Positions 18,069 to 24,255 of a DNA stretch of 64,000 bases are shown here, in pieces; within the stretch, counting starts at the first letter, position 1; every line of letters starts with the position of its first letter. This DNA is from Promethearchaeia archaeon (lineage in GTDB: Archaea > Asgardarchaeota > Lokiarchaeia > Sigyniarchaeales > SOKP01). Position numbers and translations under genes: made by a program. The notes under the pieces are model-generated. The model ran no database searches. It saw only the letters and a list, made by a program, of their open reading frames with translations, and was not told where the DNA came from. The stretch spans positions 1 through 64,000 of the forward strand of contig JAWOCD010000110.1 in assembly GCA_046483985.1 (NCBI GenBank), given 5' to 3'.

Positions 18069-19262
18069 TTAGCGAGTATTTAATTTCCCTGGTGCTTCAG
18101 TGGGGTATTCAGCAAACTTTTTACCCCACTTAGTCTTCATAAATTCTCCTATTCTCTGTTTTCCCACAGTAGGATACCAAAACATGTCATGATACAGAAG
18201 ACTGCCCAAGATTGGTAAGGCAAAAAAGAGTTTATTGTGAAGTAAAGGTTCTAAAAAACTTAATGGTCCTTTTCTGACCATTTGATCACCCCATATTACC
18301 AAACTTCGTTTAACGTGGAAATTCCAATTTATATCAGATACATCCTCTCCAATTATTTCAATTTGGTCAAAATCGCCGCAGCCTAATCCTTCATTATGTG
18401 CCATTTTTATTGCGGGCAATTTTAATGGTTCGAATCCAAGCATCTTCGCCACCACGGTATCCACCGCAACTTGGTCATATCCGGCTAAAAGGTAATTCTT
18501 AATGCGAGGTATCATGGTTCTTGGTCCAGAACCATCTCCGCAGACGGTTCCGTCCACTATTGCCATAAGTTCGGGATGAATCTGTTTTTGAATGATTAAG
18601 AGATCCACCAACACTTCAGACATAAATTGATGACTGAAATGGCGCCGCTTGGTGAGCAACCCGCCGAATGCATTCTTCATAGAACATGTTATCCCCCCGT
18701 TTTTTAGGTCTTTTTCGGTTTTCTTGAGTGATCCTCCTTTAGCACCTGTATGCCCATGTGTTTTCATCGTGGGTAAATGCATAATTGGTTTTCCCATATA
18801 AAATTTTGGAATTGAAAATCCTTCTGGGAAAACTTTTGAATCCAATACATGAAGTTCATGATCTTTCATATCAAGGAAATTAGGTCGTAACGATTCATAC
18901 GGGACAAAAGGAACCCGAGTTAAAGGGACAAACCATGTTCCATATTTTTTTATGATCGGTTTCCACTTATTTCCTGTCAGGCCTTTAGCAATATTGGTAA
19001 CAACTGTCCGGTTTTCCGCTGTGAAGATATCTTCTGGGTTATATCCATCTTCAGTCATCGTCTTTAAAATCCCCTCTAATTGCCAAGGGGGACTAGAACA
19101 CGCAGGAAAGAATTTTGACCAACTTAAATTCAGTTTCAAAATGGTATCTTGTCCCTTAGGATAATGGTTTTCATAATCTGCCATATGCATTAACTTTCTA
19201 TAATCCTTTAGCACAGTTTCTGGCGATGTTTTTACAACATAAATTTTAGAATTAGAACTCAT
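18069..19262 (-). CDS. DUF362 domain (Fe-S associated) protein
   Basis: KLNLSW, LPTMKTH, TCSMKNAFGG, VDGTVCGDGSGP, DQVAVD. Confidence 0.87.
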   Translation of the reverse strand: MSSNSKIYVVKTSPETVLKDYRKLMHMADYENHYPKGQDTILKLNLSWSKFFPACSSPPWQLEGILKTMTEDGYNPEDIFTAENRTVVTNIAKGLTGNKWKPIIKKYGTWFVPLTRVPFVPYESLRPNFLDMKDHELHVLDSKVFPEGFSIPKFYMGKPIMHLPTMKTHGHTGAKGGSLKKTEKDLKNGGITCSMKNAFGGLLTKRRHFSHQFMSEVLVDLLIIQKQIHPELMAIVDGTVCGDGSGPRTMIPRIKNYLLAGYDQVAVDTVVAKMLGFEPLKLPAIKMAHNEGLGCGDFDQIEIIGEDVSDINWNFHVKRSLVIWGDQMVRKGPLSFLEPLLHNKLFFALPILGSLLYHDMFWYPTVGKQRIGEFMKTKWGKKFAEYPTEAPGKLNTR

Positions 19263-19340: not shown

Positions 19341-20600
19341 TTATTTAAAGATCTCAACCATTTCTGGTGATTTCTTTATGCTTTTGATATACTCGAAGTA
19401 CTTTGACACATCATATCCGTATTTTTTTCCAATATCTAAAACATTTTGCAGAATTCGAAGCTTTCTCACACCTAATTTACAAGTTTTGAAGAATGATCGA
19501 AATAGCATAGAAAGCGGTAATACATTGTCGAGATTTTCCAAGGGTCGAAGAACAATTCCTTCTGGAGAGAATTTAAATAATTTTTCTGTTTCATAGATCA
19601 GTTCATCTTCCAGTTCGCCAATTTTTTCATATTTATAATATTCTTGGATTTTTTTAAAATGTTTTATCATAAATATAATTGTTTCGTTTATATCTCGCCC
19701 TAATTGCAAAACCTTCATGGTCTGGTCAAAACCGGGGATAATTTTGAGTAAGGGTTCGAAGTTCTGTACGCCAAATCGTTTAAGACTCTCGTGAAGCTCC
19801 CCGAAAAGTTCTGCTCGTTCTTTATCGCATGCAAGATAATTATATATGAGATAACGCCCTGTTTTTGTATCAAACAAATCCATTTTCTTGTCTAATTCCT
19901 GAAAGGGCAAGATTTTTACTTCAAAGTCAAAATGAATGAAATGTTCCTTCTCGATTTTCTTATTGTTAATCTCTAATAAACGAGCAGTTAGTGAATAGAT
20001 ATGGGTCTCTTTTGCCTTAATTTGGAACGAAACTGCCTTTGGCTTTTCAGGCGGAAGTTCTATTATAAAACCATTTCCTTTACTCTTACGCTGTTGGCTC
20101 GGATTCCTTGAAATATTCAAACTTACTTCCATTTTAATATGTTGAGCCCCCCGCTGAATTAACATTCCGGTTACTGGGAAATTTTGGTTCCGGATTCCAA
20201 TTGGGGGATAGTATAACTCGAAAAACCCTAATTCTAATTGTTGTTCGCCCATATAGCCAGAGAGATATATATTCGCTTTATTGACCAGTTCTTCGAATTC
20301 TGTCTTAAAAAGGGAAATTAAATTTTTTGCCTTTTTGGATATCTGCAGTTGTTGCGTCTCTTCCTCTTCTCTTTCGCTTTCTTCTTGAATTCGTAAATTA
20401 AACTCGAGACTTTCTTTTAATAATGAGATCCGCTTAAGAATTGTCCGTAATTTTTCTTGAAGTCCTTTTCGTTTCGCTCTAAATTCTTGTAGAGAAATAT
20501 TTGATTGTTTTAATTGTCGTTTCGACAGTTGAATCTTTTTTACAATTTCTTTAACTTTTGCTTTTAGCCGTTTTAATTCTTCGCTGGTAGATTCTGGAAT
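19341..20600 (-). CDS. Hypothetical protein (about 419 aa) with N-terminal coiled coil; probable ATT start, 116 codons upstream of the ORF-track ATG (20252)
   Basis: Frame stays open from 20252 to 20603 and encodes heptad-like IPESTSEELKRLKAKVKEIVKKIQLSKRQLKQ...; AGGTGA SD-like motif 7 nt before the ATT. Confidence 0.75.
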   Translation of the reverse strand: MPESTSEELKRLKAKVKEIVKKIQLSKRQLKQSNISLQEFRAKRKGLQEKLRTILKRISLLKESLEFNLRIQEESEREEEETQQLQISKKAKNLISLFKTEFEELVNKANIYLSGYMGEQQLELGFFELYYPPIGIRNQNFPVTGMLIQRGAQHIKMEVSLNISRNPSQQRKSKGNGFIIELPPEKPKAVSFQIKAKETHIYSLTARLLEINNKKIEKEHFIHFDFEVKILPFQELDKKMDLFDTKTGRYLIYNYLACDKERAELFGELHESLKRFGVQNFEPLLKIIPGFDQTMKVLQLGRDINETIIFMIKHFKKIQEYYKYEKIGELEDELIYETEKLFKFSPEGIVLRPLENLDNVLPLSMLFRSFFKTCKLGVRKLRILQNVLDIGKKYGYDVSKYFEYIKSIKKSPEMVEIFK

Positions 20601-20603
20601 AAA

Positions 20604-21653
20604 TTATTCACCTGATTCAAGTTGTTTTTTGACCATCTTCTCAAAACCAATCGAATTCGAGAATATGGGATCTTCGACTTTAATAATACGATCTAAATCT
20701 AAATCTCGTATTAAATTATGCTCGAGAATTAACATTTCAATCTCAGTCCAAAATAATTCCACCGCTTCACCAGTTATAATATAATATTCCACATCCGCTT
20801 CCAAGGGTAAACTATTTAGAACTTCTGAAAGATTATCTACGATATCATTGGCAATTTGCCGAATATAATGCTCTTTGACGTTTCCAATGTCATAATTTTT
20901 TCCCGCAAGAATCACTTGATCTTGTTTCTTTCTGATATTTCCTAAAATCGTATGAGGATTGACGATTTCCCCCGTCTGTTGCTGTAATGCTTGAGAAATT
21001 TTATTAGCTAAAACAAATAGAGAGGCATTTGTTAGATTAAGGGAAGCAGTTCGTATGATTTCCCCATTATATACTGTTAGAATCTCCGTTAATAAATCAA
21101 GCGAAATAACGACCGCGTCTAATGCAATCCCTTTTTCTAAGTTTGATACAATAGAATAGTAAGATCCATAACTCTGAGGCATGATGAACGCTTTTTTGAT
21201 GGTTTTCTCAACCTCGATAATCTCATTGGTTGCTTCGTTTTTAATTTTTATTTCACATTTTCCCTTAATTTTTGCACTTAATTCCTTCATACGCTTGACA
21301 CTGGTTGAGATCGGCACACCAATTCCAAGTATAATGTCGGACTCCTCTTTATCTACGATAAGAGGCAAGATCGATTTAATTATCTGAAAAATTTCATCAA
21401 TTTTTTCTAAATTTCCTTGGTCCAAAATAAATTGTTTTATTTCGCTCTGAGTCCGAGCCAACTCACCGATATAGAATTCCTCTTCGTTCTCTATGAGGAT
21501 TAAGTTATTTTCCCAACTTTTATCAGAGGTAAGCTCTCCAAAGCCTATAGGATCGCTGCTCCCAATTACATTGGGTATTCTGAACTGCTTCTCTTTGCTG
21601 GAAAACTTAATTTCGGATCCGATGTCAATTCCAATGCCAACTGTATTAGTCAT
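20604..21653 (-). CDS. ParM/StbA-like actin-fold protein, degenerate (pseudo-ATPase) paralog
   Basis: IGIDIGS, YIGELARTQSE, GVP and DPIFSNSIGF retained; phosphate-2 reads SLDLLTE and adenosine motif reads TGEA. Confidence 0.85.
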   Translation of the reverse strand: MTNTVGIGIDIGSEIKFSSKEKQFRIPNVIGSSDPIGFGELTSDKSWENNLILIENEEEFYIGELARTQSEIKQFILDQGNLEKIDEIFQIIKSILPLIVDKEESDIILGIGVPISTSVKRMKELSAKIKGKCEIKIKNEATNEIIEVEKTIKKAFIMPQSYGSYYSIVSNLEKGIALDAVVISLDLLTEILTVYNGEIIRTASLNLTNASLFVLANKISQALQQQTGEIVNPHTILGNIRKKQDQVILAGKNYDIGNVKEHYIRQIANDIVDNLSEVLNSLPLEADVEYYIITGEAVELFWTEIEMLILEHNLIRDLDLDRIIKVEDPIFSNSIGFEKMVKKQLESGE

Positions 21654-21761
21654 TTAATATTATCCCTAAAAATTCTGATACGCTAAAAAACTAAAAAATG
21701 AATAAATTATATTATAGTATTATAGTTAATAATAAAAATTAATTTTTAAGTTGAATAAAAT

Positions 21762-22784
21762 ATGAAAAACGTCGGAATTGACCTTGGAACATCTACGGTA
21801 AAGATCTCATGCGGAGATCAGCAGTTCTTAATCCCCTCAGTGATTGGTGAGCCGAATCCTGGGTGGACGGGTACTACTTTCGAGAAGGATCTCTCAAAAA
21901 ACCTCGTACTAATAGAAGGAAGAGATAAATATTATATTGGGGAATTAGCCCGAATGCAATCCGAAGTAAAAAGAGCGTTGGCAAGTGATGGACAAATGAA
22001 GTCGGCAGAAGAAACATTCCTCGCAATAAAAGCCGCACTCTCTTTATTATTAGAAAATGATAATGAAGATGTTAATATTGCCACGGGCGTACCAGTTGCA
22101 ACTCCGCTTGACTCCATGAAAAACCTCAGTAAGATGTTAAAGGGAAATTTAGAAATTTATGTAAAAAACGATGCAACCGATGAAACAAAAAGGCTAAATG
22201 TCAATGTAAATACATGCATGGTGCTCCCAGAGCCATACGGAACGTATTACAAGACTCTAAAAGACAGGGGGGAAGACACCGCAGTCGATACAGTAATAAT
22301 TGATATCGGCCATGGCAGTACAGACATTTTGACAATGTACCAAGGTAGACCCATGAGAACCGCAAGCGGTTCCATGCGGGAGGCCACAGATACCTTAACC
22401 AGTCGAATGGCAAAATCACTCCAAGATAAAACGGGATCAATTATAAAACCATTCGACTTGATGTCCACAATCAGAAAACAAAAAGAAACAGTAATGATTG
22501 GCGGTCAAACATATTCGATTAAGAAAATCAAGAATTTTTATGCAGATCAAATTTCAAAAGTTATGGTGGACGAAGTGATGCGTCTCATCTCTAATCTACC
22601 TCCGGATGCATTCGTTGAGTACTATATTATTTGCGGAGGAGGAGCCTACACCTTCGGAGATACCATTCGAGAAGCAATTATTGATAAAAAATTAGTTGCC
22701 TCTCCAGAAAATGTAGTCATTCCGGATGATCCAGTCTTAAGTAATGCAGTTGGGTTTGAATTGGTTGCAAATGCCAAATCTTAA
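21762..22784 (+). CDS. ParM/StbA-like actin-fold ATPase
   Basis: Phosphate-1 VGIDLGTSTVK, PEPYG, phosphate-2 IIDIGHGSTD, adenosine ICGGGA, DPVLSNAVGF. Confidence 0.92.
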   Translation: MKNVGIDLGTSTVKISCGDQQFLIPSVIGEPNPGWTGTTFEKDLSKNLVLIEGRDKYYIGELARMQSEVKRALASDGQMKSAEETFLAIKAALSLLLENDNEDVNIATGVPVATPLDSMKNLSKMLKGNLEIYVKNDATDETKRLNVNVNTCMVLPEPYGTYYKTLKDRGEDTAVDTVIIDIGHGSTDILTMYQGRPMRTASGSMREATDTLTSRMAKSLQDKTGSIIKPFDLMSTIRKQKETVMIGGQTYSIKKIKNFYADQISKVMVDEVMRLISNLPPDAFVEYYIICGGGAYTFGDTIREAIIDKKLVASPENVVIPDDPVLSNAVGFELVANAKS

Positions 22785-22965
22785 TTGTTTTTTCCTTCTT
22801 TTTTCTCTTTATTTTCTCAGACATTTTTGGGATGTGAAATTTATTTTGGAATATTTAAAAAATCATCCGAAGAGAAAATAAAAAATAAATAACCTCAATT
22901 CTATTTGTTTATCAAGTATTACTTGTTATACTTTCTAAGGAATTATCTAAAAAATAAGGTTATGT

Positions 22966-24255
22966 TTGAAAGTGGATGATAAAACTTCTAAAAGGGATAT
23001 CGAAGAATTAGAAAATACGGTTAAAGGTATTTTGGGTAAGGAGGGGAGTTCAAAAAAAGAAGGATCTTCAAAAAAAAATTCAGAAATTGGTTCGGAACTT
23101 TCAGAACTTGAGTCAATGGTAAAAGGGGCACTCACGGAACTAACTGATTTGGAAAGTAATCTTATTAATGTAATTAGTCCTTCACCAGATATGAACAATA
23201 AAAAAGAAGGCAACTATCTAATGGCAGTGCGAAGATTCCAAAATGCTATGAAAGCGGCGCTTATAGATGGCGCTAAGAAAAGGAATCTTGATACTTTTCA
23301 AGAAGGCTTTAATTTTTATGAAAACGCCCTCGAAATTATAGAATCCACTGGAAATAAAGCTGAACGAGATCAACTCAAATCGGAGTTTTCCAAACTTTTA
23401 ATGAAGATTATCTCCGAAGATAAAAATAGACGGGATCCGAAATTTATTCCCTTTCTTCAGAAATCGTGTATTAAACTAGCCGAGATTTATGAATCGTTTG
23501 GACAATATGATGCAGCCATAAAATTTCACGATAAAAATATTGAACTCTTTAAAAACAAGCCGTTGCAAGGAGACTTAGAACGGTTTCAAGTCATCGTGAA
23601 CTATCTTCTCTTAAAAAAAAAGTCCACGGCCAAAGACTATGTTACTCATCTCAAGTTCAAACCCATTAAAAAACTCACCGAACAACTACTAAATTCAATA
23701 AATACAGGTAATTTAACTAACCTTGAAGGTATAAAAACTCGAATAGAAGTCTTGGGAACACAAAAAGGCTTGAAAACTCGAAGTGCATTAAATTTAATTG
23801 ACCGCCTTTCAGAACAATATGAGACACCGAAACCAGATGCAGCTGAACAAATTAAAGTTCCCGAAGGTGCACAAAACCTCTCAAACGAGAAAATTAATGC
23901 CATTAAAAATTCACTTTCTAAAGGAATAGAACAACTAAAGACGACTCATCCCGATCTTAAAATTTCCGCCAATATTGATACAGAATCCATCGTGAATGAA
24001 TTGAAAACCGCGATATCCTCTGAAATTAGTAAAGAGATTAAAACGCTGTCAAGCTCTATTGTCTCTCAAATTGTGAAAAAAATGCCTACCAGCTCATCCT
24101 CATCCTCAAGCTCAAGAGCTCCCGCATCCCGCTCTGCAGGTAATATCTCGGATGAGGCAGCTCCCGAGATTGATGTAGTTGAGGGGGGAGAGAAACAGAA
24201 ACCTAAACGTCCAAAACTGGATGATATGCTTGATAATGTAATCGTCTCAGAGTAA
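22966..24255 (+). CDS. Hypothetical alpha-helical (TPR/SNAP-like) protein with Ser-rich linker and short C-terminal motif
   Basis: Helical repeats (LAEIYESFGQYDAAIKFH), SSSSSSSS tract, terminal KPKRPKLDDMLDNVIVSE. Confidence 0.75.
   Translation: MKVDDKTSKRDIEELENTVKGILGKEGSSKKEGSSKKNSEIGSELSELESMVKGALTELTDLESNLINVISPSPDMNNKKEGNYLMAVRRFQNAMKAALIDGAKKRNLDTFQEGFNFYENALEIIESTGNKAERDQLKSEFSKLLMKIISEDKNRRDPKFIPFLQKSCIKLAEIYESFGQYDAAIKFHDKNIELFKNKPLQGDLERFQVIVNYLLLKKKSTAKDYVTHLKFKPIKKLTEQLLNSINTGNLTNLEGIKTRIEVLGTQKGLKTRSALNLIDRLSEQYETPKPDAAEQIKVPEGAQNLSNEKINAIKNSLSKGIEQLKTTHPDLKISANIDTESIVNELKTAISSEISKEIKTLSSSIVSQIVKKMPTSSSSSSSSRAPASRSAGNISDEAAPEIDVVEGGEKQKPKRPKLDDMLDNVIVSE

Follow-up and report, generated by a model that had tools for sequence, protein, structure and literature searches.

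What kind of system is encoded where two paralogous actin-fold genes diverge from one short spacer on an archaeal chromosome, each of them followed by a partner gene of its own? The question is raised by a locus at positions 19341-24255 of a 64,000-nucleotide stretch of DNA from a Promethearchaeia archaeon (contig JAWOCD010000110.1 of assembly GCA_046483985.1, positions 1 to 64,000; hereafter the window). An earlier note on this stretch had described the locus as a candidate Asgard filament system, composed of an active actin, a pseudo-actin and two adaptors. All four open reading frames (ORFs) were confirmed at the positions given there, and both the ORFs and the alignment agree with the proposed arrangement, i.e. 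two paralogous actin-fold genes (36% identity over 334 residues, E 3e-78) placed head to head across 108 bp, each with a partner; the motifs that had been quoted as common to the two are indeed present in their alignment. We refer to the four genes as actA (the paralogue with intact nucleotide-binding motifs), adaptor (its partner), psA (the paralogue with rebuilt motifs) and CC (the coiled-coil partner of psA). The best explanation, which we put forward with moderate confidence, is that the locus represents an accessory chromosomal cassette derived from a filament system of the ParM/ParR type (type II partition), in which the adaptor is new and a regulatory pair has been added.

The actin-like ATPase and its adaptor

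The gene actA (21762-22784, forward strand) encodes an actin-like ATPase of the ParM/StbA superfamily of 340 amino acids. Its Pfam matches to ALP_N (PF17989, 70.6 bits) and MreB-like_C (PF21522, 50.0 bits) both lie above the gathering scores of 26.3 and 27.8 bits, respectively. The nucleotide-binding motifs, for which we used phosphate-1 DxGxxxxK, phosphate-2 DxGxGT/S and an adenosine GG(G) loop as criteria, are intact, namely DLGTSTVK, DIGHGSTD and CGGGA(Y). The NCBIfam models for ParM and PRTRC_D match at E 1e-13, which is under their cut-offs, the sequence matches in the PDB include the pCBH ParM, Ta0583 (2fsj, E 1e-6) and Dh-cParM1 (E 2e-6), and ParM/StbA proteins encoded on plasmids (1244 plasmid records) are about 25% identical to actA over the full length. 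The assignment of actA as a ParM-superfamily ATPase with intact motifs is strongly supported by these comparisons. Moreover, when 1.84 billion representatives were searched with a profile, the Asgard clade scored 561 bits, followed by the psA type with 369 bits and by three further subfamilies with 322-358 bits, and the generic ParM-like proteins, separated from these by a gap, did not exceed 164 bits; by its profile score actA falls within a tight Asgard-specific clade, and its orthologues are 46-76% identical.

The proteins had been described as not lokiactin-like, and this is borne out by the Pfam Actin model (PF00022, cut-off 27 bits), which yields a partial match of 22.9 bits for actA and no match for psA. 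Four eukaryote-type actin-family genes are located elsewhere in the source genome (C101:111660-112772, C85:4030-5121, C107:39138-40085 and C59:98059-99168 of G000), with scores of 165-440 bits, one of them being lokiactin-grade at 440 bits. Since the genome encodes these four proteins, the ParM-like cassette is, as far as sequence tells, an actin-fold system additional to the eukaryote-type actins.

In the case of the adaptor (22966-24255, forward strand, 429 amino acids), whose gene starts 181 bp downstream of actA, conservation is highest at the extreme C-terminus, in a predicted docking tail that comprises residues 412-429 (24199-24252, forward strand). The heptad RPKLDDM is invariant in 19 homologues and the consensus of the tail reads RPKLDDMLDxIIVSE-COOH. 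A regular expression for the tail recovered 19 ORFs from 82 loci and the window, every one of which directly follows an actin-like gene, and a single one of the 17,603 ORFs in the window's genome; at the level of the phylum, a profile of the tail was found in 15 of 301 sampled genomes, including all 11 genomes of one Heimdall family. Complex modelling of actA with adaptor residues 380-429 yielded an ipSAE of 0.84 in three runs, whereas none of three controls exceeded 0.03, so that the proposed check of an interaction by modelling came out in favour of a contact between actA and the adaptor, at least in silico. The runs agree in at least 97% of the contacts and the partner has a pLDDT of at least 73; of the solved complexes and mismatched pairs used for calibration, 58 of 80 and 2 of 110, respectively, reached the mark of this test, and these numbers are only rough here, as our own alignments were supplied. 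The predicted interface connects tail residues 412-429 with residues 107-127, 151-176, 194-197, 282-286 and 335-339 of actA. The C-terminal peptide of the adaptor is thus predicted, with strong support from the models, to dock into actA, and from the topology of the actin fold the docking site would be the IA/IIA cleft that is used by ParR on ParM and by CorR on CorM. At the groove, psA differs from every active group (K167 is replaced by S, L166 by V or I and F284 by an acidic residue); because these are three positions of the interface, the differences hint at a tail that is specific to actA over psA.

The peptide is not confined to one type of adaptor. At 12 loci of the Heimdall family in which all 11 genomes have the tail, all belonging to one paralogue group of the actin-like family, the actin gene is overlapped at its 3' end by a gene whose product, some 230 amino acids long, has an unrelated body and ends in KPDRPSLDDAIGAIVVVE-COOH, and an alignment of the Heimdall and window tails by hhalign has an E-value of 1e-4 over 34 columns. 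We also considered whether the window adaptor could be a fusion of a 371-residue protein encoded downstream in Heimdall genomes with the tail, and dropped this candidate since hhalign shows no relation. The earlier note had stressed the lack of a ParR-like gene and had proposed a convergence on the logic of actin and its actin-related proteins (Arps). Both statements need revision: a helical-repeat protein occupies the position of ParR and carries a ParR/CorR-style C-terminal peptide, and as this peptide recurs on a different adaptor in Heimdall, descent from the ParMR logic is the more fitting description. At the same time the locus does not fit fully within the class of plasmid partition systems, because an adaptor with a ribbon-helix-helix (RHH) domain, parC repeats and a plasmid location are all missing.

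The body of the adaptor consists of a SNAP/TPR-like helical repeat (residues ~36-291), conserved helices (307-372) and a disordered linker that leads to the tail, and its 35 detectable homologues are all of the Loki/Hel type. The structural model has a pLDDT of 71 overall and comprises a helical repeat at around 90 (residues ~74-285), two more helices, the linker and the tail. The closest structural matches of the repeat are gamma-SNAP (Z 14.4) and alpha-SNAP/Sec17 (Z 13.5, with a root-mean-square deviation of 4.2 over 201 residues), Z values of a kind common to unrelated helical repeats; the Foldseek E-values are only 2e-3 and there is no SNAP match in Pfam, in which the TPR matches are weak and under cut-off. 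SNAP is a eukaryotic membrane-traffic adaptor fold, and the likeness of the repeat to it may reflect generic TPR-like geometry. Neither an RHH, ParR or other DNA-binding domain was recovered from Pfam, nor an RHH or ParR match from NCBIfam, in which arcadin-2 scored insignificantly (E 0.093). As regards the start of the adaptor, the GTG at 22972 is probable rather than the TTG at 22966, as the relatives begin with M/V-D-x-K-S-P at this position.

We consider the following mechanism for actA and the adaptor likely. ActA would polymerise on ATP, and the tail of the adaptor would couple the ends or sides of the filaments to a cargo that is held by the SNAP/TPR-like repeat. This cargo is probably not DNA, because neither an RHH domain nor centromere repeats are present.

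Setting, distribution and mobility of the cassette

The two pairs diverge from a spacer of 108 bp (21654-21761) with a GC content of 13%, which presumably contains both promoters and holds no iteron array. The cassette is set in a conserved housekeeping neighbourhood on a contig of 64 kb or longer, with a GC content equal to that of the surroundings, and the neighbours in the window encode an M48 peptidase, UbiA, PHP, EamA, DUF362, FtsJ/TlyA, an acyltransferase, a RadA-like protein and an MFS transporter. Within about 8 kb on either side we found no integrase, transposase, replication, conjugation or plasmid genes and no RHH or ParR match in Pfam. In and around the cassette there is no parC-like array or iterons, only two-copy short repeats at chance level and no tandem array that scores above 41, and no att-like repeats of 8 nt or longer flank its borders. 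The scans of repeats and neighbours are therefore in accordance with the housekeeping setting, free of parC-like repeats and of plasmid or integrase genes, that had been noticed at the outset. In addition, the four proteins were compared with the PADLOC models of defence systems, which yielded no system match and one generic TPR match (E 8e-4); a role in anti-phage defence was dropped for this reason.

The distribution of the family is patchy. The actin-like family is present in 53 of the 301 sampled genomes of the phylum, being near-universal in four families (26/28, 11/11, 5/5 and 6/7) and absent from the searched genomes of several large ones (0/76, 0/21 and 0/19), and the psA type occurs in 10 of the 161 genomes of the window's class and in 6 of the 135 genomes of its own family. 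Instead of the general Asgard system that might have been expected, we thus see an accessory cassette that is restricted to part of the genomes. Where it occurs, however, the survey of conserved genome context indicates that its four genes stay together while the flanks change: of the 10 psA-bearing genomes of the class, 8 have psA and actA head to head on a single contig (in a further one the locus lies at a contig edge), the partner gene adjoins its actin gene in every locus that reaches far enough, and the quartet is conserved in nine loci of the Hel/Loki type and in two more (L084 and L085), whereas 26 of 28 pairs of loci have no flanking ORF in common. In six genomes of the same family that are devoid of the cassette the neighbourhood around DUF362 is otherwise kept, and in the three of these that retain FtsJ (L109, L113 and L114) this gene directly adjoins DUF362, i.e. 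the site is empty. By its genomic behaviour, the quartet is accessory: its four genes travel as one unit, which is acquired, relocated and lost in its entirety, and this supports a functional coupling between them and argues against a role in a core cytoskeleton.

Some further traces of gain and loss were observed. The DUF362 gene of the window (18069-19262) is inverted relative to four of the six cassette-less relatives (L109, L110, L111, L113 and L114 were compared), the orientation in L112 being that of the window, and because of this inversion a local rearrangement on arrival of the cassette is suggested. A genome of the same family (G273) that has no ParM-like actin gene contains an ORF of 99 amino acids (L104:8960-9259) that corresponds to the C-terminal helix, linker and tail of the adaptor, and a second tail fragment lies about 1 kb away; the ORF could be what is left of a lost cassette, or else encode a tail protein that stands by itself.

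Could the cassette nevertheless be a DNA-partition locus, that is, a type II par cassette belonging to an element that has integrated or was once mobile, or a chromosome segregator, with an adaptor that contacts DNA directly or via a partner? The membership of the ParM/StbA superfamily, the NCBIfam matches to PRTRC_D and ParM and the plasmid ParMs of about 25% identity would fit, as would the patchy distribution, variable flanks and empty site that can be expected of a mobile cassette. The Heimdall adaptor with the common tail also points in this direction: its N-terminus is basic, by eye its core resembles an RHH fold (strand, helix, G-rich turn, helix), and its Atlas leads are StbB/ParR-like (PF10784), at only 0.82, and CopG (0.78). 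However, the RHH domain in this adaptor is a reading by eye that finds no sequence support in Pfam (searched with a single protein and with all 12 members) or in a PDB profile search, and nothing convincing as parC-like repeats was seen upstream of three Heimdall operons. In the case of the window itself, the adaptor lacks any DNA-binding domain known to Pfam and its model is an all-helical repeat, and the absence of iterons, flanking repeats and genes for integration, transposition, replication or conjugation nearby, together with a GC content like that of the surroundings, makes a function in DNA partition unlikely.

Heimdall genomes contain up to four paralogue groups of the actin-like family, each in its own conserved context. 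In three of the four groups (H1, H2 and H3; L017, L026 and L030) a small Ras/Arf-like GTPase is encoded within 1-3 kb, and the GTPases of H2 and H3 fall into one sequence cluster. The H3 operon furthermore encodes the 371-residue protein mentioned above, which is a Zn-ribbon/helical protein, and a SNF2/DEAD helicase of 1400 amino acids. In the fourth group (H4; L063:6086-9906) the actin-like gene is the last one of an operon that encodes a MoxR AAA+ ATPase, a DUF58/VWA protein and a protein of 455 amino acids of no named family, a context unlike the arrangement with a tail-bearing adaptor.

Several observations weigh against an accessory cassette of ParMR descent whose parts work together through the tail. 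The two pairs are separable, as they lie on different contigs in Hel_GB_B, and one genome of the same class (G294, 82% complete) has a homologue of the adaptor (L106:6212-7375, 27% identical, tail present) and no actin-like gene at E <= 1e-30. With respect to the docking, the placement in the IA/IIA cleft follows from the topology of the actin fold and not from mapping onto a solved ParM, and the score may partly echo solved ParM-ParR peptide complexes in the memory of the model. Finally, Heimdall and Njord paralogue groups that lack a neighbour with the tail have retained the residues of the groove as well (L166, K167 and Y163, among others), and for this reason the groove may be conserved for polymerisation in the first place and not for the tail.

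The rebuilt paralogue and its coiled-coil partner

The second actin-fold gene, psA (20604-21653, reverse strand), encodes a ParM/Ta0583-type paralogue of 349 amino acids whose matches to ALP_N (42.7 bits) and MreB-like_C (28.6 bits) are likewise above the gathering scores. Its nucleotide-binding motifs are noncanonical: phosphate-1 reads DIG-SEIK, with one residue deleted, phosphate-2 reads SLDL-LTE versus DIGHGSTD in actA, and the adenosine motif reads TGEAVE versus CGGGAY. In an alignment of 10 psA and 10 actA proteins of the Loki/Hel type with family members from Heimdall, Thor, Sigyn, Loki and Njord, all 10 psA proteins have a common degenerate set (GIDIG-GxIK, V[IV]SLD[LY]-LTEI and ITGE[AG]); the orthologues are only 47-64% identical to the psA of the window, yet the rebuilt motifs are unchanged. 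The nucleotide pocket is thus conserved, rebuilt and probably non-hydrolysing, which would make psA a pseudo-ATPase.

The degenerate copy had been proposed to be more than a neutrally evolving remnant, and the constancy of its motifs agrees with this. The same holds for the comparison with L084, a close relative with matching flanks, to which psA is 89% identical (nonsynonymous divergence, dN, 0.064) and actA 92% (dN 0.054), versus 62-64% amino acid identity for the flanking PHP and FtsJ genes; as the synonymous divergence (dS) is saturated (above 1.7 or undefined), the comparison is restricted to dN and amino acid identity and no dN/dS ratio is given. In each of the 10 class genomes that carry psA, its ORF is intact. 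As its motifs are constant across orthologues and its identity to L084 exceeds that of the flanking genes, it is strongly supported that psA is a paralogue under purifying selection.

With respect to the origin of psA, the free tree places it together with P0169 on a branch of its own within an Asgard polytomy, and the approximately unbiased (AU) test does not reject a duplication within the Hel lineage (p 0.051). P0169 (L083:5464-6564), the nearest relative of the psA clade, has intact phosphate-1 and phosphate-2 motifs and an adenosine region like that of psA (TGDGVELFW), and could represent an intermediate stage of evolution. Near its locus, neither a homologue of CC nor one of the adaptor was found.

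The partner of psA, CC (19341-20600, reverse strand), encodes 419 amino acids in a frame that is open from the psA stop and in which no ATG, GTG or TTG occurs before 20252. Its start is probably the ATT at 20598-20600, since two relatives of 419 amino acids that are 85% and 82% identical (P0156 and P0157) have their M exactly at this codon and since a Shine-Dalgarno-like hexamer, AGGTGA (20608-20613, reverse strand), lies 7 nt upstream of it, within the 3' end of psA; in L084 the codon at this position is TTG. The location of the hexamer inside psA, the gap of 3 nt between the two genes in the window and the orthologous CC starts, which overlap psA by 4 nt or directly follow its stop, suggest that psA and CC are translationally coupled. 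Judged by its reading frame, CC is a separate gene and not a read-through fusion with psA. Noncanonical start codons are recurrent in the module: the psA genes of L003, L004 and L082 open with ATC or ATT right after a stop and have no ATG, GTG or TTG for about 50 codons. In the model of CC (pLDDT 71) an N-terminal coiled coil or three-helix region (residues ~5-110) is followed by a beta-sandwich of the Ig/CARDB-like kind (113-232), and residues 247-419 form a helical C-terminal domain. The fold searches (Foldseek, VIA-wide and Atlas), in which the C-terminal domain was barely covered, returned generic coiled-coil/three-helix and Ig/CARDB-like matches, and no family match was obtained in Pfam, NCBIfam or PADLOC. 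The N-terminal ~115 residues are the part in common with shorter CC proteins (250-320 amino acids) of other Hel-type lineages, and CC does not match the tail motif.

What could such a pair contribute? Within the cassette that we favour, a complex of psA and CC may cap, nucleate or anchor the filaments of actA without hydrolysing nucleotide, a role that we propose tentatively. The more far-reaching version, in which psA is held by CC as a dedicated nucleator, cap or anchor and a division of labour between a polymerising and a non-hydrolysing paralogue has arisen independently inside a ParM-type system, is doubtful; if true, it would have arisen in the archaeal lineage closest to eukaryotes, beside the lokiactin cytoskeleton.

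Alternatively, the locus could comprise two independent modules, actA with the adaptor and psA with CC, that share no more than a divergent promoter region, psA being a pseudo-enzyme scaffold outside any filament that works with CC only. The occurrence of the pairs on separate contigs in Hel_GB_B, the three changes in the psA groove, the missing tail motif in CC and the separate branch of psA and P0169 would all be in line with this. Independence is nevertheless improbable, since all genomes found with psA also hold an actA-type gene, many holding the actA type without psA, and since the head-to-head order is kept in most of the psA-bearing class genomes despite their changing flanks. An obligate heteropolymer, in which psA and actA assemble stoichiometrically like alpha- and beta-tubulin or BtubA/B, would account for the full length of psA, for the many surface motifs that it keeps (YIGELAR, GVP, PE-YG-YY and SN-GFE) and for its being as conserved as actA. 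This is quite unlikely, however, given that Heimdall and Njord actA-type proteins occur without psA and that the absence of canonical start codons from the psA genes of L003, L004 and L082 and from the window CC suggests a low expression. Lastly, the loss of the canonical motifs might be taken to mean that psA is a decaying, functionless duplicate, an idea that is hardly credible in the face of ORFs that are intact in every class genome with psA, degenerate motifs that are constant among divergent orthologues, and a gene better conserved than most flanking housekeeping genes at saturated dS.

Comparison with known systems

The discussion of Asgard cell biology currently concerns almost wholly lokiactin, Arps, profilin/gelsolin, ESCRT and tubulins. 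The cassette and the wider Asgard ParM-like clade, which nearly all genomes of several Heimdall families carry, point to a second actin-like filament system in these archaea, one of a prokaryotic type, of which no description was found in the full-text literature that we searched; its relevance to eukaryogenesis is limited by the patchy, cassette-like distribution. With four small soluble proteins, the system is suited to direct in vitro work that does not depend on culturing the organism.

Among archaeal proteins, Ta0583 of Thermoplasma acidophilum is likewise a chromosomally encoded ParM-like actin fold, and PF21522, which is matched by both psA and actA, was built on it. We know of no adaptor or dead paralogue described for Ta0583, and from this and other actin-like proteins (ALPs) the Asgard clade is set apart by the gap between 561 and at most 164 bits. 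Crenactin of Pyrobaculum is reportedly regulated by arcadin-2, the product of a neighbouring gene, through a C-terminal peptide in the actin groove (as Izore et al. are said to have described in 2016), but crenactin is a eukaryote-like actin and not an ALP. Arp2/3 and other Arps can be compared by analogy only: here as well a divergent paralogue is kept beside the filament-former, and homology does not extend further than the actin fold. The nucleotide-binding motifs that are lost in psA are retained in Arps.

The resemblance is closer to ParMRC (plasmid R1 ParM/ParR/parC and the pCBH and pSK41 types). In both, the gene of an ALP ATPase is followed by that of an adaptor whose extreme C-terminal peptide docks in the ATPase, although for the cassette the docking is predicted and its match to the ParR pocket derives from topology. 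The Asgard cassette differs in being chromosomal, without genes of mobile elements or parC iterons, and in having as its adaptor a SNAP/TPR-like repeat protein of 429 amino acids instead of an RHH protein. To our knowledge, no ParMRC system with an extra dead paralogue and a coiled-coil partner has been described, and for a dead paralogue with its own partner we found no counterpart in any ParM-type system; psA is the first candidate that we found for a pseudo-ATPase partner of a ParM-type filament. Bacterial chromosomes also carry ParM-type genes (Dh-cParM1 and others; PMC12270681), which differ from the cassette in being single actin genes of bacteria; in what we read of that article no archaeal ParM is mentioned.

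The closest described logic is that of CorMR of Anabaena sp. PCC 7120, a chromosomal ParMR system in which the adaptor kept the peptide, lost DNA binding and binds the membrane (bioRxiv 10.1101/2025.06.27.661541). CorM (PDB 9rmi) is a weak PDB match to actA (E 0.0044), and as the scores against the NCBIfam model FcmB (29.7 bits for actA and 15.7 for psA) are far under the cut-off of 300, actA is not an orthologue of CorM/FcmB. CorMR is bacterial and has no pseudo-ATPase paralogue. Both systems are chromosomal and have a peptide-bearing adaptor with a changed attachment; CorR is still an (RHH)2 protein, to which a new N-terminal amphipathic helix was added (bioRxiv 10.1101/2025.06.27.661541), whereas in the Asgard cassette the whole body of the adaptor has been replaced. 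The cassette may therefore be viewed, next to CorMR, as a natural case of the swapping of adaptor bodies on a conserved docking peptide.

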